Source: a virus | Taxonomy: Duplodnaviria; Heunggongvirae; Uroviricota; Caudoviricetes | IMG/VR virus record: IMGVR_UViG_2579778652_000004 | Reading direction: 5' to 3' (one strand) | DNA length: 5,648 nt | In this document: in pieces, positions 1-5,648 of the stretch | Layout of the letters: the number at the start of each line of letters is the position of its first letter | Position numbering within the stretch: position 1 is the stretch's first letter | Notes under the pieces: model-generated | Told to the model about the DNA's origin: nothing | The model's database searches: none | Seen by the model: only the letters and a program-made list of their open reading frames with translations | Made by a program: the position numbers and the translations under genes

Positions 1-1
1 T

Positions 2-352
2 CGCAATGTCCGGGCAAAATCAGGTTTAAACCGTTCGATACTGGATCAGGGCTGGTATGAAATGCGCCGCCAGCTTGAGTACAAGCAGCTCTGGCGTGGC
101 GGTCAGGTGCTTGCTGTTCCGCCAGCGTACACAAGCCAGCGTTGCGCGTGCTGTGGTCATACAGCGAAAGAAAATCGCCTGTCACAAAGTAAATTCAGAT
201 GCCAGGTATGTGGATATACAGCGAACGCCGATGTAAACGGCGCTCGTAACATTTTAGCGGCGGGGCACGCCGTACTTGCCTGTGGAGGGATGGTGCAGTC
301 AGGCCGCCCGTTGAAGCAGGAACCCACCGAAATGATTCAGGCGACAGCCTGA
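2..352 (+). CDS. tnpB: IS200/IS605-family TnpB (OrfB) RNA-guided nuclease, C-terminal ~117 aa; 5' end lies outside the window
   Basis: The frame is open from the window edge: [20 protein letters not shown] precedes the Met at 62, so the 96-aa ORF in the track is the tail of a longer protein. It carries the TnpB C-terminal signature: 'SILDQGW...RRQLEYK', a CxxC...CxxC zinc ribbon (CACCGHT ... CQVCGYT) and the RuvC-III-like '[10 protein letters not shown]' motif with the Asp retained. Stop TGA at 350-352. Confidence 0.85.
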
Positions 353-410
353 ACGTAGCAGGAATCCACGCCCTTCGGGGCGTGGAGGATGTCACACTGC
401 CTCTTTAATG
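230..410 (+). ncRNA. Candidate TnpB-associated guide RNA (omega RNA / reRNA) overlapping the tnpB 3' end and IS right end; coordinates approximate
   Basis: Established knowledge for IS200/IS605 TnpB: the guide RNA scaffold is encoded by the 3' end of tnpB plus the right end, with about 16 nt of guide copied from DNA just outside the IS. The UUCG hairpin at 365-386 on the tnpB-sense strand fits a terminal scaffold stem. No RNA ends can be determined from sequence alone. Confidence 0.25.
365..386. repeat. Hairpin: 9-bp stem (365-373 / 378-386) with TTCG loop, immediately 3' of tnpB
   Basis: Read directly: tccacgccc-ttcg-gggcgtgga. In plus-sense RNA this is a C(UUCG)G tetraloop hairpin. It is part of a 30-nt motif repeated at 4118-4147. 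Confidence 0.75.
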
Positions 411-757
411 TTGGCGGCTATCCATGCCGCCGTGTGCTGTTTAACCTGGTCCAGGTCGATGTATGTGCCAACATATTGACTCAAGTCCTGTAACGTACCG
501 ATAAATGCATCAGTGCTCTGATCGACGAATTTATCAGCCAGGAAATCAGCAACCAGTTTTGGCACACCATCATGTTCCGAAGGTTGTTTTTCCTCGCCAC
601 TACCACCGCCGGACGCGCCGTACCCCATCTGTTGCATGATCTGGTCAATTTCATCGCTGATATCCAGCAACTCCATACCACTCGCGATAGCCGCTTTGGA
701 CATCAGAGCATCCAACTTATCGCTGAGATCCATTAACTCAATAGCTGATAGTGTCAT
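392..757 (-). CDS. ddrA: Small, strongly acidic protein (121 aa), DdrA-like member of a P1-type Dar anti-restriction operon
   Basis: Its ATG at 755-757 overlaps the darA-like stop (ATGA overlap at 754-757), with a G-rich SD-like stretch upstream. The protein has about 21 Asp/Glu against 7 Lys and no Arg. Position immediately downstream of the darA-like gene matches P1 gene order as I recall it. The stop TGA (392-394) lies inside the repeated hairpin motif. Confidence 0.45.
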   Translation of the reverse strand: MTLSAIELMDLSDKLDALMSKAAIASGMELLDISDEIDQIMQQMGYGASGGGSGEEKQPSEHDGVPKLVADFLADKFVDQSTDAFIGTLQDLSQYVGTYIDLDQVKQHTAAWIAANIKEAV

Positions 758-2673
758 GCCGCTACCCCCGCTTTCTGGATTGCTACCAGCAGATCAGCCA
801 GGTGGCGAGCAGCGCCATTAACCAGCTCTTCGTTTTCCTCAAAACGCCCGGCAGCCTGAAGGGCTGCAATCGCTTCCCGGACATTGCCCCGGGCGTTACG
901 GATCTCCGCCATGTCAGTGCTTTGCATATCCATCACGTTATTGAGATATTCAATGGCTTTATTAGCCTCTGCATCTGCTTCGCTAACCGTTTCATCAGGC
1001 TGTGCCGGGACCGGTTCTGGTTGAGTAATCTCACCGACTTCGGCCTGCAATGCCTTGATCATGCTCTGCACCATTTTCTCGGTGCCAGCGCCCCCAGGAA
1101 ACGCAATATTGGGGAAAGTTTTTTGAAACTGAGTTTTCAGCATTACGCGGAACTCGTCTGGTGAGCTGGTGGCCAGCTCCAGAGCTTTTTGTGCATATTT
1201 GCCAAACGGACCATTAGTAAGTGTCTTCGCCAGGAAGTCGAAAGAATCCTCGCGAGGCAATAACTTCAGGTCGTACTCACTCATTTGCTGATCAGAAAGC
1301 GGGGTATCGTAAGTAGCAATGCCGTAGCGTGCATATTCATAATACGGGTCACCTTCATCAGGGCGCGGCAGAATTGCTTTGTTACCTTCAGGTATTGCGC
1401 CAGGGGCCGCCGGACGCATTTGCAGGGCATATCGATATGCACCTACAGAGACTTCTGGTTCAGGCGAAGAGCTACCGGTATCCTCCGCTGGTTCAGGTTC
1501 GACGTTTTCCGGTTTATGTTCTTCTGGTTGGACCAGGTATTCCGATACATTACCCGCTTTATAGGCTTTAAACAGCTTGCCGATCGCATCTGCCATGTCC
1601 ACACCCTGTATGGATTTAGCCTTGATCATGTATACGCTGCCATCCGGATCGGTTAACTGGATATACCCTTCGCCATCCCCAATGAATTGCTTCATTGATG
1701 CACCATTACTGAGCGTCGCTTCCCCGTCCATATGCATACGATTTTTGATACTGGCAAGGCGATCCGTCAGCGCGCGAGAGTACCCACCAGTCATCCCCGC
1801 AGGAGCAATGGTATCGCGCCCACCAGTGCGATTGAGCTGATCAATCTCCGTCTGCAAACGCTCATTCTCTTCATAAAGAGAATCCGCTTCCGATGCAACA
1901 GCGTTAATTTTCTGCTCCAGATCTGCCTTCTGCCCTTCTACCGCTGCCACCTGATCCGCGAGGTCGCTCATGGCATCCTCTTTCTGGTCACTGTCAGCCT
2001 GTAGTTGGGTTATTTCATCAACAAGGGCTTTTTTCTTCTTCTGCGCACGCTGGAATTTTGCCGAGTTTTTCTCTGCAAGGTTGGCAAGTTTCATGGTGAC
2101 CTGCGCCAGCGTCATATCACGTCCACTCATCGGAGCAACGGTGTGAGTAACGTCTTTTTTATTCAGTAAGAACTGGAAAGCAACCAGCGTATCGCTATTG
2201 GTGATCCGGTTTTCCGCTGTCGGGCTATGAAACAGAATGCTGATAGTCTGACCATCACTGAGCGGAATAATGGCTGGCAGGACCGGCAGCCCGTTAACGT
2301 TACGTGCCCGACCAATTTCAGCGCCGCCGATCGCGCGCGCGCCGCTCTGGGCCACATCGCCCGTTTTATCACTCCCCGCAGAGATTCCGGTACCATTCAG
2401 CTTCTGGTTCAATGCCCGGACAAATGCCTGCATGGTCCGGTGTAACTGCAAACGAGTAGAACTAATCGCCTCCAGTAAATCCGTAGCACACCAGTGGATC
2501 GGCGTGTCATAGAAGAACGTAGCCTCGATTTCCTCCAGGGTGTTGGATTCCGTCATCAGATAGCGGTCCTCACCGGCCATTAATGCGCGATATTCATCAT
2601 CAGTCACTGGCGGGGGAAGCGCGTCAAGCCCAGGTTTGATCGTCACCCCTTTATTGATATTGAACTGTTCCAT
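754..2673 (-). CDS. darA: DarA-like protein (639 aa), large component of the phage P1-type 'defence against restriction' system
   Basis: Long uninterrupted ORF with ATG at 2671-2673 and an AGGAAA SD about 8 nt upstream. Size and position (after the holin/antiholin pair and an hdf-like gene) match the P1 darA operon. Residues about 135-215 are paralogous to the upstream 200-aa ORF (shared 'KNSAKFQ'), matching the definition of Hdf as a homologue of a DarA fragment. Contains a coiled-coil-like heptad region (about residues 210-275) and Pro/Glu-rich linkers. Confidence 0.6.
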   Translation of the reverse strand: MEQFNINKGVTIKPGLDALPPPVTDDEYRALMAGEDRYLMTESNTLEEIEATFFYDTPIHWCATDLLEAISSTRLQLHRTMQAFVRALNQKLNGTGISAGSDKTGDVAQSGARAIGGAEIGRARNVNGLPVLPAIIPLSDGQTISILFHSPTAENRITNSDTLVAFQFLLNKKDVTHTVAPMSGRDMTLAQVTMKLANLAEKNSAKFQRAQKKKKALVDEITQLQADSDQKEDAMSDLADQVAAVEGQKADLEQKINAVASEADSLYEENERLQTEIDQLNRTGGRDTIAPAGMTGGYSRALTDRLASIKNRMHMDGEATLSNGASMKQFIGDGEGYIQLTDPDGSVYMIKAKSIQGVDMADAIGKLFKAYKAGNVSEYLVQPEEHKPENVEPEPAEDTGSSSPEPEVSVGAYRYALQMRPAAPGAIPEGNKAILPRPDEGDPYYEYARYGIATYDTPLSDQQMSEYDLKLLPREDSFDFLAKTLTNGPFGKYAQKALELATSSPDEFRVMLKTQFQKTFPNIAFPGGAGTEKMVQSMIKALQAEVGEITQPEPVPAQPDETVSEADAEANKAIEYLNNVMDMQSTDMAEIRNARGNVREAIAALQAAGRFEENEELVNGAARHLADLLVAIQKAGVAA

Positions 2674-2674
2674 G

Positions 2675-3277
2675 TTAATTTCCTGCTTTCAGTTGCTTAA
2701 GACGGCGTTTGAGTTCGCCATTTCGGGCCTTTTCGTTATTGAGTCGGCCTGTCTCCTTATCCAGCTTCGCCCGCAAATCAGTGATCTGCTGTTGATTGAA
2801 AGACACCGAGTTCTGCGCTGATTTATAAGCGGCAACCACCTGAACATTCCGCTGTTTTGCCTCTTGCAGGCGCTGAAAGTTGGATTTTACTGCCGGTTTC
2901 TTGTCTACCGGATTGGCAACACGTTTCGCTTTGGCGATCAGTGATTTCTGGAATTTTGCGGAGTTTTTGCGGGCCGCTTGCCCCATGACGGTACCAAGCG
3001 TCTTGATATCCGGCGACTGAGCGTTAGGAATAGCTTTTCCATTCAGCCTCACAGACGATATATCGCCAGTATCGTTTACCTGTATGGCAAGAATTTGTCC
3101 GTCGTTAAGAACCAGCTTTGCGGTTTTAACTTTAACGCCATCTTTCGTTGTTGCGCGGTTGCTGGAGTCAACCTCAATTACCGTAACACCGGTTTTATTG
3201 ATCGCCGCGATAAGGGATTTCAGCCCCTTTTCATTAACCTGGTCAAAATCGACCGTTGCATACTTATTTTTCGTCAT
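2675..3277 (-). CDS. hdf: Hdf-like protein (about 200 aa; homologue of DarA fragment), Dar system component
   Basis: Shares a roughly 70-aa segment with the DarA-like protein, including 'ARKNSAKFQK' against 'EKNSAKFQR' and 'LNDGQ' against 'LSDGQ', and has a coiled-coil-like C-terminus. The ATG at 3275-3277 (MTKNKY...) is preferred because AGGA sits 8 nt upstream; the track start at 3286 (MCQ...) has the AGGA directly abutting the ATG. Stop TAA at 2675-2677, 1 nt before the darA start. Confidence 0.55.
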   Translation of the reverse strand: MTKNKYATVDFDQVNEKGLKSLIAAINKTGVTVIEVDSSNRATTKDGVKVKTAKLVLNDGQILAIQVNDTGDISSVRLNGKAIPNAQSPDIKTLGTVMGQAARKNSAKFQKSLIAKAKRVANPVDKKPAVKSNFQRLQEAKQRNVQVVAAYKSAQNSVSFNQQQITDLRAKLDKETGRLNNEKARNGELKRRLKQLKAGN

Positions 3278-3707
3278 CTGACACATCCTGTGCGAGATTT
3301 ATTACGTAACTTCTGCGGATTTGCTGAGTAACAGGGAAAATCCGATACAACGGGTTAATGAACGAGTCGCCATGCGTAACCATGACGTTGAAATGCCACA
3401 GCCGTTCTCCTTTACCCATATATTCAGTGGGTATGTACAACCATTCACTGTTTTCGCCCTGTTCAGCCGACGTCAGACAACGTTGTTCGCCTTCAATCAC
3501 AGTCGTCGGCTTCTGAACATCGCGGATCCAATATCTGACCGTTGCGCCGCGCAAAAACGGGAATTTAGACCGGTATTTGAACGGCACCCGGATGAAACCC
3601 GGTTTAATTTCCACATCACCAAGTTCTAAATGCGTGATGTCCTTGCGTTTTAGCAAATAGCGATCGGCTAAGGCTAACGCAAGAACGCATACACCCCAGC
3701 CAATCAT
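3264..3707 (-). CDS. lydB: LydB-like protein (147 aa), putative antiholin / lysis regulator
   Basis: ATG at 3705-3707 overlaps the holin stop (ATGA), with a GGGAGG SD 7 nt upstream. Hydrophobic N-terminus (MIGWGVCVLALALA). Size and position directly after the holin match the P1 lydA-lydB arrangement as I recall it. Confidence 0.5.
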   Translation of the reverse strand: MIGWGVCVLALALADRYLLKRKDITHLELGDVEIKPGFIRVPFKYRSKFPFLRGATVRYWIRDVQKPTTVIEGEQRCLTSAEQGENSEWLYIPTEYMGKGERLWHFNVMVTHGDSFINPLYRIFPVTQQIRRSYVINLAQDVSDDEK

Positions 3708-4033
3708 TTCCCGCCTCCCTTTTTCACCAAACTTGTAAGAACATTCAGAATGCTATCGATATTCACTCGTTTCATCCCTGAAATCACCTCATGACCGTTA
3801 TTGCTGGCTATCGTTACCATTAAGTACGTAATTGATAACTCCCAGCCCTCGTGTTGCCCCAATAGGTACGCCACCGCGCCAGCTGTCACTGCAACAAAGA
3901 TCTCCGTAACCAATCCCAACAAATTGCCAGACTGGCGACCGTCTCGGACATCCATCAGGAACGTGCCTATCCCACCAATTACTGAAAGCAGGAGCGCAAT
4001 AGCAACTGGAGCTAATTCCTGTGTGTCAAGCAC
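3704..4033 (-). CDS. lydA: Holin (LydA-like, 109 aa), GTG start
   Basis: Small protein with 2-3 predicted transmembrane helices (LAPVAIALLLSVIGGIGTFLM; LVTEIFVAVTAGAVAYLL; SITYLMVTIA) and a charged C-terminus (KKGGGK), the classic holin architecture. A perfect AGGAGG SD lies 6 nt upstream of the GTG at 4031-4033. Confidence 0.6.
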   Translation of the reverse strand: MLDTQELAPVAIALLLSVIGGIGTFLMDVRDGRQSGNLLGLVTEIFVAVTAGAVAYLLGQHEGWELSITYLMVTIASNNGHEVISGMKRVNIDSILNVLTSLVKKGGGK

Positions 4034-4039
4034 AAGTTT

Positions 4040-4059
4040 CCTCCTACGTTGTCAGGAGG
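4040..4059 (-). promoter_or_regulatory. Potential SD-sequestering stem-loop in the holin 5' leader (CCUCCU-8 nt-AGGAGG on the mRNA strand)
   Basis: Read directly: plus-strand cctcct (4040-4045) and aggagg (4054-4059) are inverted repeats. On the minus-sense mRNA the lydA-like SD (AGGAGG) can pair with an upstream CCUCCU. Only a 6-bp stem, so stability is modest. Confidence 0.3.
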
Positions 4060-4108
4060 TAATGGTATGCAAAGTAACTTCTTCTCTGATTAAGTTATGT
4101 AATGCGCC

Positions 4109-4148
4109 TTGACATCCTCCACGTCCTTCAGGGCGTGGAGGATGTCAA
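4109..4148. repeat. 40-nt near-perfect palindrome (18-bp stem with one G·T, TTCA loop) overlapping the stop codon and last codons of the DUF1353-like gene; second copy of the motif seen at the IS junction
   Basis: Read directly: ttgacatcctccacgtcc-ttca-gggcgtggaggatgtcaa. Positions 4118-4147 match 365-394 at 28 of 30 nt. The DUF1353-like TGA stop (4128-4130) lies in the loop. Confidence 0.75.
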
Positions 4149-4541
4149 CTGGTATTTTCCTCTTCCAAAAAGTCTGACCGCACAATACATCAGCATCCTG
4201 CGCCAGCGGGGAACACCCAGTACACACATCGCATCAAGAAATATCTTGTCCGCTTCGTGCTTTGTCCGCAGCGCGTTGTCGTACAGCCAGTCGTGAATAA
4301 TCGCCGCTTTGGCGTAACGACCGTGTGGCGGAAATACCGACCAGAGAATGCGCGGTACGCTGGCAAGGTCTGTGACATACCCCGCAGGAACCGCAATCAC
4401 ATCCACGGGGTTATCCGTCAGCCAGAACTCAAACGGCTCAACCAGTCGCCAGCGGTAATCATCGAGCATTTCCAGCACGGCAGGAGTGGTGAATTTACTC
4501 ATCGCCCCATCCCACAACATAACGGCGAACGGCGTCGGCAC
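4128..4541 (-). CDS. Conserved phage protein of unknown function, DUF1353-like (about 124-137 aa depending on start)
   Basis: ORF with 'TDLASVPRILW...HDWLYD' motifs, which I recognise as DUF1353-type. Start is ambiguous: GTG at 4541 (AGGA 7 nt upstream, 47-nt overlap with the upstream gene), or ATG at 4520 or 4502. Confidence 0.5.
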   Translation of the reverse strand: MPTPFAVMLWDGAMSKFTTPAVLEMLDDYRWRLVEPFEFWLTDNPVDVIAVPAGYVTDLASVPRILWSVFPPHGRYAKAAIIHDWLYDNALRTKHEADKIFLDAMCVLGVPRWRRMLMYCAVRLFGRGKYQLTSSTP

Positions 4542-5070
4542 TGTCCAGTCCTGCCACGTCCTCTTTCATCTGCCGCTGGCGTTCGTGTATCTGAAAACCA
4601 CGGATAACCATCGCCTGCAACATGGCAGCGTCCAGCTGTACCAGCTCTTCCGGCGTGAGGGTGACGTCCTGGTTATCCGCGTCAGTCCAGAAAAAGCCCG
4701 CCGGAAGCGCACCCGCCTGTGCCACAGCAATCACCGGTGCCAGGCGGCTTCGTGAAATTTTTCCACCGTCCCAGCGGTGGCCATTCCACTCAAAAATAAT
4801 TCCGGCGTTTTCCTGGTCATCACGCCAGCGACTGATTTCATCATGCTTACTCTGACGGATGCGCTCCAGCTGCGCTTCTGTCATCACAAACGGTGCAATT
4901 TCTCCGGCAAGGCCATCCTGAAGCGCCTGCCAGACGGCCCGGCCTGTTGCTGCGGTATCTGTGGCGGTTGCGGTGTATGGGATAAACTCTGTTTCCCCTT
5001 CAAACAACACCTGACAACTGATCGCGTCATGAGATATGTAAACCGGATTTTTAATTGACAAAATATTCAT
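4495..5070 (-). CDS. Tail-fibre assembly / chaperone-like protein (191 aa)
   Basis: ATG at 5068-5070 with an AAGGTGG SD about 8 nt upstream. It lies immediately downstream of a probable tail-fibre C-terminus and has typical Tfa size. The C-terminal region 'FFWTDADNQDVTLTPEELVQL' resembles tail-fibre-assembly/DUF4376-like proteins; the assignment is by context and motif memory only. Confidence 0.45.
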   Translation of the reverse strand: MNILSIKNPVYISHDAISCQVLFEGETEFIPYTATATDTAATGRAVWQALQDGLAGEIAPFVMTEAQLERIRQSKHDEISRWRDDQENAGIIFEWNGHRWDGGKISRSRLAPVIAVAQAGALPAGFFWTDADNQDVTLTPEELVQLDAAMLQAMVIRGFQIHERQRQMKEDVAGLDSADAVRRYVVGWGDE

Positions 5071-5090
5071 CTATCTAACCACCTTTTTCA

Positions 5091-5648
5091 TTATGCGAAT
5101 CTGATAAAGAGGCCAATTTCGTATCCGGTTATTGCACCTATATATCCGTACAGTGCAGCGTAACTGCCAGGGAATGAGCTTGTACCAATATCATCAACAT
5201 TAAATATCAGCGTTTTCATGTCGGGCTTTAATTCAATATTAATATCCCTTAAATAACGACCATCTACCATGCGGCCACGGGCTGTCATAGTGAAATCATC
5301 TGCTGGCCTCATATATGCGGCAAGAAATACATTACCAACATCAGGTTCAAAGGTCGCACTATGCGATCTGATTCGCCTTGCTATTAGATCAGGCGTCACC
5401 AGAAATTCCTGCATGGAATAGAGTGTATCGAGCGAAATAAACTGTCTGGCAATTTCTGAAATGCTTGCCAGACTAATCTTTTTATCCGCGTCAAAATACG
5501 GAAATGCATTTCCGGCAGGCATTAATTTACTTAGTGCCGTCAGCATGTCATTCAGTGGTTGTTTTTTATCAAGAGCAGCTTTAATCGCCTTAACCGCCTT
5601 TGGTGTGGCAGCTTCCGTTTCGCTTTCACTGTCAGTATCGCTACTTAA
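5091..5648 (-). CDS. 3' part of a gene whose frame is open to the right window edge; probably the C-terminal (distal, receptor-binding) part of a tail-fibre protein
   Basis: The minus-strand frame stays open upstream of the Met at 5546 through to 5648 (…SDTDSESETEAATPKAVKAIKAALDKK…). Stop TAA at 5091-5093, 20 nt before the Tfa-like start. AT-rich (about 40% GC against about 55-60% in the Dar genes). Function is inferred from position upstream of the tfa-like gene. Confidence 0.35.
   Translation of the reverse strand, partial: LSSDTDSESETEAATPKAVKAIKAALDKKQPLNDMLTALSKLMPAGNAFPYFDADKKISLASISEIARQFISLDTLYSMQEFLVTPDLIARRIRSHSATFEPDVGNVFLAAYMRPADDFTMTARGRMVDGRYLRDINIELKPDMKTLIFNVDDIGTSSFPGSYAALYGYIGAITGYEIGLFIRFA

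Follow-up and report, generated by a model that had tools for sequence, protein, structure and literature searches.

In bacteriophage P1 (NC_005856), the region that joins the tail-fiber genes to the lysis genes is organized as R-S-U-[U'-Sv']-cixL-cin-lydC-LPdar-lydA, with the invertase gene cin on the opposite strand, and the same order is found in P7 and in RCS47, although RCS47 has retained cin only as a pseudogene. The lydC-cin-Sv'-U'-U-S block is one of eight hypervariable regions of the P1-like phage-plasmids, designated region 3 (PMC9603915), and the hot spot RD-3 harbors plasmids in which cin is truncated or absent and the C segment is incomplete (PMC6906374). Among the 556 PLSDB records that match the P1 lydA-lydC-cin stretch, 143 cover at least 80% of it. 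Here we analyze the corresponding junction in a stretch of 5,648 nucleotides (nt) of viral DNA, IMG/VR record IMGVR_UViG_2579778652_000004, referred to throughout as the window. Because published P1-like plasmids already include cases in which the lydC-cin-C-segment block has been lost or altered, the arrangement found here is a further variant of the documented fiber mosaicism of the lydC-cin-S region, a clean example of it and not a discovery.

In the window, the end of a tail-fiber gene is followed by a DUF4376 gene, a DUF1353 gene, a palindrome of 40 nt, the late promoter LPdar, and the genes lydA-lydB-hdf-darA-ddrA, with all genes on the minus strand and no recombinase open reading frame (ORF) in the window. 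An earlier note on this DNA had proposed that the tail-fiber module joins the lysis/Dar module without an intervening cin, a claim that the ORFs, the Pfam matches, and the position of the palindrome bear out. The P1 gene order given in the note agrees with NC_005856, and the possibility that it had raised against itself, namely that P1 shares the order of the window, is not what that genome holds. We consider it highly probable that the window represents a P1-like phage-plasmid whose switchable fiber end has been exchanged for a one-way cassette, consisting of a fiber tip, DUF4376, and DUF1353, from a P2-like prophage. This reading is built on observed sequence relationships, junction positions, the absence of cin and cix, family membership, and conserved catalytic residues.

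The lysis/Dar side of the junction is P1 sequence. Window positions 397-4082 are 98.4-98.8% identical to P1 and P7 (98-99% across P1, P7, and RCS47); homology to RCS47 starts at position 1 and homology to P1 and P7 at position 397, and in none of them does it reach past 4082, a position 2 nt upstream of the LPdar −22 box. The promoter, located by transferring the P1 annotation through the alignment, is intact on the minus strand at 4062-4080, with a −10 element at 4062-4067 and a −22 box (AAGTTACTT, 4072-4080) that is an exact match. It is followed by the holin gene lydA (4033-3704, minus strand; Pfam LydA holin, Phage_holin_3_3; 98-99% identity to P1, P7, and RCS47), the first gene of an operon that runs on to position 392. 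The whole window is carried by three complete plasmids in PLSDB at 98.1-98.6% identity, all of them P1-like phage-plasmids. The best match, pMUB-MIN10-2 (98,084 bp), is a typical one, with c1, cre, a repA-type gene, parAB, phd/doc, lpa, and tail and head genes, and R, gene 16, bplA, the repA-type gene, parAB, c1, and cre are among the genes present in the complete relatives. Judged by this backbone, the window belongs to a Punavirus-type phage-plasmid.

On the far side of the cassette, the complete relatives do not return to P1 homology until P1 position 37,095, inside the Sc repeats; therefore, approximately 5.9 kb of P1 (31,233 to ~37,095), comprising lydC, cin, cixL, Sv', U', U, Sv, cixR, and the distal Sc repeats, has been swapped for an incoming cassette of 2.3 kb. 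Entry of the cassette by recombination at cixR was considered and rejected, since P1 homology stops ~600 nt short of that site. Compared with the P1 and P7 tail-fiber operon, the window type has kept R, the proximal Sc, LPdar, lydA, lydB, hdf, darA, and ddrA at 96-99% identity, together with the late promoters and the direction of transcription. In contrast, it lacks cin, cix, the inverted second fiber end, and lydC, its distal S and its chaperone gene are unrelated to Sv and U, and it has gained a DUF1353 gene and a palindrome derived from an insertion sequence (IS) at the joint.

The earlier note had suggested looking elsewhere in the replicon for cix-like sites or a serine recombinase, and neither occurs in the 98,084 bp of pMUB-MIN10-2. 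A tblastn search with P1 Cin had no hit below E 0.2 in the window or below E 3 across pMUB-MIN10-2, no cixL- or cixR-like site was found within 5 mismatches of 20 in the window or the entire plasmid, and no recombinase other than Cre is annotated in the latter. A P1 LydC query matches only the paralog LydA in pMUB-MIN10-2, and a single fiber tip with a single chaperone was found, with no second, inverted set. The invertible switch is absent rather than relocated, at least in pMUB-MIN10-2, and this absence of cin and cix, combined with a backbone 98-99% identical to P1, supports the suggestion of the note that the element is a P1 relative with a fixed host-range cassette.

The missing switch raises the question of whether the locus is merely the remnant of a defective P1-like plasmid, from which cin and the C segment were deleted, which forms no infective particles, and whose gene arrangement carries no meaning. 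The S gene of pMUB-MIN10-2 is indeed frameshifted, and impairment is often presumed for published P1-like plasmids in which cin or the C segment is altered (PMC6906374). However, the event is a replacement and not a deletion, none of the three cassette genes is disrupted in the window, the related plasmid pM121-2 has an unbroken S (752 aa), and LPdar and the entire lysis/Dar operon have been preserved. The identity of 99.6% between the cassette and its prophage copies further argues that the cassette is recent or maintained. Such decay is thus very unlikely to account for the arrangement, and we return to the exchange of a functional cassette and its source.

Over its 1,497 nt, the stretch at window positions 4152-5648 has 6 mismatches (99.6% identity) to prophages in the chromosomes of several E. 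coli strains, the matching part being the H-tip/DUF4376/DUF1353 end of P2-like E. coli prophages. The prophage of strain MIN10 contains portal, terminase, P2-family capsid, and lysis genes, V-W-J-I, an H fiber, DUF4376, and DUF1353, with the sheath-tube-tape-measure operon converging on DUF1353. The DUF4376 protein of the window is identical to the P2-like prophage copy at 191 of 191 residues, and the DUF1353 protein is identical over its first 115 residues, after which it ends in GRGKYQLTSSTP before the stop codon, versus GRGNYFREKITHL in the prophage. The fiber end of a P2-like (Peduovirus-type) prophage, which consists of H, a chaperone gene in the G position, and a variable slot before the next tail operon, is the clearly recognizable donor, with an identical gene order and an identical overlap of 8 nt between the last two genes; what differs is that the module is here grafted onto a P1 fiber shaft and that the last ~nine codons of DUF1353 have been swapped for codons that the palindrome encodes.

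The left crossover can be placed within the fiber gene itself. The window holds the 3′ part of S, encoding the receptor-binding tip (5648-5091, minus strand), in an ORF that is open to the window edge; its translation bears the motif SSDTDSESETEAATPKAVKA and hits PHROG tail-fiber families, and the listed ORF of 151 aa is only the last portion of S. This S is continuous with the intact S of pM121-2, whose 752 residues comprise a P1 Sc N-terminus, several copies of the repeat SSxTxSxSExxAATPKAVKAAYDLAxGKYTAQDATTxQKGIVQL, and then a P2-type tip. As a motif of the SSxTxSxSExxAATPKAVKA type is found in the prophage H too, the left crossover is ordinary homologous recombination in fiber repeats. Recombination in shared fiber repeats is the classical route of fiber mosaicism among P1, P2, and Mu. 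In pMUB-MIN10-2, the frameshift lies in these repeats and splits S into two overlapping ORFs (17842-17903), reflecting either a pseudogene or an assembly error.

Two further features of the cassette bear on its history. Its GC content is 56-59% over DUF1353 and DUF4376 (4200-4950) and drops to 40-44% over the fiber tip (4950-5648), and the cassette is therefore itself compositionally mosaic. Positions 4152-4180 differ from the P2-like prophage by ~5 mismatches in 28 nt, with the rest of the cassette nearly identical, a clustering that suggests a patchy junction or another donor allele for the 3′ end of DUF1353. The cassette of the window shares 99.6% identity with the prophage copies but 97.7% and 95.3% with those of the plasmids, and strain MIN10 holds both a cassette-bearing P1-like plasmid and a P2-like prophage; together, these observations suggest a recent, repeated, or ongoing exchange of host-range modules between phage-plasmids and integrated prophages.

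The right junction is marked by the near-perfect palindrome at 4109-4148, which is separated from LPdar by a spacer of 26 nt of non-P1 origin (4083-4108), P1 homology having stopped at 4082. The arms of the palindrome (4109-4127 and 4130-4148) are 19 nt each and 95% complementary, and the RNA has predicted folding energies of −30.3 kcal/mol (minus strand; z −6.3) and −37.5 kcal/mol (plus strand; z −8.1), which none of 200 shuffled sequences equaled. The stop codon and the final six codons of DUF1353 fall within it, and the C-terminal tail of this protein is freely variable across the family. At 31 of 31 nt, hairpin and terminal GGATGTCAA included, positions 4118-4148 match the right end of IS609 (insQ; IS200/IS605 family, TnpB) beside ydcO in E. 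coli K-12, and 4,383 of 5,426 E. coli genomes contain this right-end sequence; the same positions are also 93% identical to an IS609-like right end at window positions 365-394. The left arm, TTGACATCC, repeats the tip of the IS right end in the opposite orientation. Unlike IS609 itself, the junction contains no transposase, TnpB, or left end, and the 9-nt tip has been duplicated in inverted orientation to give the 40-nt palindrome. A search for a complete IS200/IS605 element recovered only the terminal 31 nt at 4118-4148, and there is no IS-type ORF in 4034-4127.

Several other identities for the palindrome were considered and rejected. It does not qualify as the standard intrinsic terminator of the fiber operon: on the minus (coding) strand, where GGCGCAUUACAU comes next, no U-tract follows the hairpin, and a terminator scan scores the plus strand only (CTGGTATTTT). 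Nor is it a cix-like site, for it does not resemble cixL or cixR, and it is not the end of the TnpB-type IS found in pM121-2, as that element has other ends and the palindrome persists beside it. Rfam returned only sub-threshold matches at the palindrome (HgcC, htlv_FSE, and mir-764), and the HgcC model matches weakly both here and at the IS609-like right end of the window.

The same 40 nt, with one difference in the loop, adjoin LPdar in another group of P1-like plasmids, the JL22 type, exemplified by NZ_CP033848.1, where both flanks are different: one side is P1 sequence up to the lydC stop and the other is a different cassette. This cin-less cassette (locus L003, 14139-19520) encodes a fiber, a macro-domain protein, tfa, and a serine acetyltransferase on the opposite strand. 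Palindrome junctions of this type occur in ~38 P1-like plasmids. The published cin-less or C-segment-altered plasmids share with the window the hot spot and the replacement of the host-range block, and those of the JL22/FDAARGOS_497 type also have the palindrome by LPdar; the incoming cassette of the JL22 type includes tfa and a serine acetyltransferase, as opposed to the P2-type tip, DUF4376, and DUF1353 of the window. The window-type junction is rare, being found in 3 complete PLSDB plasmids, versus the ~38 with the other palindrome junction and the 143 with the full P1-type stretch.

Sister copies of the palindrome (TTGACATCCTCCCCGCCCTTTAGGGCGGGGAGGATGTCAA) stand alone, with no adjoining TnpB, in ~900 Klebsiella plasmids, for instance near fecI in NZ_CP033758.1 (locus L100, 2501-2540). 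Their stem differs from the window copy by compensatory changes, and the Klebsiella palindrome has the look of a small dispersed repeat that arose from the right end of an IS200/IS605 element. In pM121-2, an unrelated TnpB-only IS with hairpins CCCCGCCC...GGGCGAGG (locus L004, 10083-11411) occupies the equivalent of window positions 4083-4086, the exact point between LPdar and the palindrome where P1 homology ends. At the other end of the window, the 3′ end of an IS609-like insQ/TnpB element (1-396, plus strand; junction 392-397) is inserted exactly at the ddrA stop codon, such that DdrA ends in V instead of A and takes its TGA from the IS right end. The same insertion is present in RCS47 and SJ46, and the weak Rfam matches in this part of the window, RAGATH-18 at 279-322 and HgcC at 285-408, are in keeping with an omega-RNA-like 3′ region of the element.

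From these comparisons, the right junction is, as judged from the sequences, a place repeatedly visited by IS200/IS605-type elements, and it is conceivable that such elements brought in the cassette or keep it exchangeable, the palindrome being the scar or active site of a TnpA or TnpB-guided event and the junction a portable one. The palindrome ends at 4148, within 3 nt of the start of prophage homology at 4152, adjoins a wholly different cassette in the ~38 other plasmids, and has as neighbors an unrelated TnpB IS at the equivalent junction of pM121-2 and an IS609-like copy 3.7 kb away in the window. Yet the IS body, its left end, and TnpA are all missing at the junction; the palindrome family, which also occurs alone in Klebsiella plasmids away from any phage context, may be no more than a dispersed repeat; homologous recombination in fiber repeats clearly accounts for the left crossover; and two cassette types are too few to make a hot spot. 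Transposon-driven exchange is, on balance, an unlikely origin of the cassette, and a swap with a P2-like prophage, with its left crossover within the fiber gene, remains the preferred account.

We now turn to the two small genes of the cassette. The DUF4376 gene (5070-4495, minus strand; 191 aa; Pfam PF14301, E 3.5e-20) begins 20 nt after the S stop codon, with a Shine-Dalgarno-like AAGGTGG 8 nt upstream of its ATG, and sits in the position of gene G in P2 and gene U in P1. Its product belongs to PHROG 1141 in the tail category, and DUF4376 proteins are listed as tail-fiber chaperones in the Alteromonas phages V22 and A5 (PMC10579305). The description of this gene as tfa-like in the earlier note is upheld by its position and by the DUF4376 chaperone literature but not by similarity to P1 U: BLASTP against U gave E 4.2 and Pfam returned no Caudo_TAP hit for the protein, and homology to U was rejected on these grounds. 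It is most likely the cognate chaperone of the fiber tip. NCBIfam holds no model for any of the three cassette proteins.

The DUF1353 gene (4502-4128, minus strand) encodes a clear member of PF07087, as the earlier note had surmised: the profile search gives E 1.1e-32 and 111.9 bits against a cut-off of 22.5, and the match spans positions 1-91 of the 91-position profile. The note had drawn this ORF as 137 aa from GTG 4541, which is probably over-extended, as homologs are 124-126 aa long and start with MSKF or MSRF. The most likely start is ATG 4502, which yields 124 aa and overlaps the DUF4376 stop by 8 nt (ATGAGTAA); seven of the IMG/VR loci closest to it (L019-L025) have the same −8 overlap, and RefSeq assigns the plasmid copy the equivalent start (375 bp). 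The overlap with the upstream gene that the note had reported is hence real and the translational coupling it had proposed plausible, albeit through ATG 4502 and not GTG 4541.

The only characterized DUF1353 protein is TtaP, encoded in the typhoid-toxin islet of S. Typhi, which is by experiment a phospholipase A2 (PLA2) and is distantly related to the group XIV secreted PLA2s (SvPLA2, 1LWB; TbSP1, 4AUP), with catalytic residues H70, D71, and D85 (PMC11525133). When translated from ATG 4502, the window protein places H70, D71, and D85 exactly at the TtaP catalytic positions. All three are invariant in 17 of 17 close homologs, and across 74 diverse homologs H70 and D71 never vary and the conservation of D85 is 90% or higher, within a family of 11,618 clusters at 50% identity. 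A profile built from the 74 sequences matches a profile of four solved group XIV PLA2s with a profile-profile probability of 90.8% (E 1.2e-6), aligning H70/D71/D85 with H64/D65/D85 of SvPLA2 (the sequence used being 122/122 identical to 1FAZ/1LWB) and matching the C-terminal Y-x-AVR-x-FG motif. An hhalign comparison with a shallow profile of only 17 DUF1353 sequences reached 2.3%, a sequence search of the PDB with the DUF1353 profile gave nothing meaningful, and Foldseek found no match for the protein in the PDB. The protein shares with TtaP its Pfam family, its length (124 versus 125 aa), the positions of the catalytic residues, and an N-terminus with no signal peptide evident by eye, and differs in being encoded in a phage tail-fiber operon and not in a toxin islet. 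Given the conserved catalytic residues and the profile match to group XIV PLA2, it likely works like a small His/Asp PLA2.

The association of DUF1353 with fiber modules is old and extends well beyond this cassette. The Francisella phage KIRK has the order J, I, fiber, DUF4376, DUF1353; Yersinia and Salmonella P2-like prophages carry the DUF4376/DUF1353 pair; and in another lineage a fiber gene, a Gp38-like gene, and small genes precede DUF1353. Among 48 distinct IMG/VR loci, the ORF directly upstream of DUF1353 belongs to DUF4376 in 27 and to Caudo_TAP in 4. The PHROGs label of the family, "tail assembly chaperone," was apparently assigned by position. Homologs are present in 298 cultured phage genomes, including those of Campylobacter, Helicobacter, Fusobacterium, and jumbo phages, and in P2-like and Mu-like phages. 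The literature searched assigns no role to phage DUF1353 proteins. In phage Arash, the homolog lies among tRNA genes, far from the fibers, and is called structural from a particle proteome, which is weak evidence because that proteome was permissive, with 116 of 272 proteins flagged. An acyltransferase gene (Acyl_transf_3) lies on the opposite strand between DUF4376 and DUF1353 in Salmonella P2-like prophages (loci L010-L013, 3816-4949), and in Yersinia a gene for LpxR, a lipid A deacylase, is found just 3′ of DUF1353 (locus L014, 1415-2374). These envelope-modifying neighbors could be a coincidence or a hint of a lipid or lipopolysaccharide theme.

Such scattered contexts lend some weight to the notion that DUF1353 is cargo, that is, a "moron" or lysogenic-conversion gene that occupies a slot of the Z/fun type in P2 and is carried along by proximity, or else a lysis accessory that attacks membrane lipids. 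The place of DUF1353 in P2-like prophages is last in the operon, where it fills the slot that separates the chaperone gene from the next tail operon; the Salmonella copies are parted from DUF4376 by the acyltransferase, with an upstream gap of their own of ~50-130 nt; the Arash homolog is remote from the fibers; and TtaP works in a toxin islet without a phage particle. Set against this are the fiber-chaperone-DUF1353 order preserved from Francisella to enterobacteria, the chaperone-type gene directly upstream in 31 of the 48 viral loci, and the start/stop overlaps of −8, −4, or −1 nt in the closest relatives, which point to late co-expression rather than expression in the lysogen. The adjacency to lydA is an accident of the junction, the lysis genes of the donor prophage being ~6 kb away. 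A cargo or lysis role is accordingly doubtful, if still worth entertaining, and our best guess is that DUF1353 is a late-expressed enzyme that belongs functionally to the adsorption/fiber module. A bolder extension, which we regard as speculative and rather improbable, is that DUF1353 proteins constitute a widespread class of tail-fiber-linked PLA2s that act with the fiber or virion at the outer membrane, in adsorption, entry, or fiber maturation, and move with receptor-binding tips as one exchangeable unit.

With the exchange of the fiber end as the preferred explanation, we infer a pattern of expression, translational coupling, chaperone function, enzyme activity, and host range for the rearranged locus. 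The left crossover occurred by homologous recombination in the fiber motifs common to P1 S and P2-type H, and the right junction lies within the last ~nine codons of DUF1353, at the IS609-type right-end palindrome, 26 nt upstream of the intact LPdar. R, S, DUF4376, and DUF1353 would be transcribed from the late promoter LPs, with DUF4376 and then DUF1353 translated in sequence and the second coupled to the first through the ATGAGTAA overlap. With no U-tract after it on the coding strand, the hairpin would do no more than attenuate read-through, and the lysis/Dar operon would still be fired from LPdar. The virion would then display one fiber type only, with no Cin-driven switching of host range, and DUF1353 would most likely be a small His/Asp PLA2 made late, together with the fibers.

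P1-like phage-plasmids are important carriers of resistance genes, and the fiber cassette sets the hosts to which they can adsorb; a fixed P2-type tip without Cin switching predicts a host range that is narrower than that of P1 and different from it. The conserved linkage of the PLA2-like DUF1353 to fibers and chaperones is the only part of these findings that could open a new question. If such a linked class of phospholipases does exist, DUF1353 would be the lipid-attacking counterpart of the tail-associated depolymerases, and the P1-like plasmid described here would amount to a natural transplant experiment.

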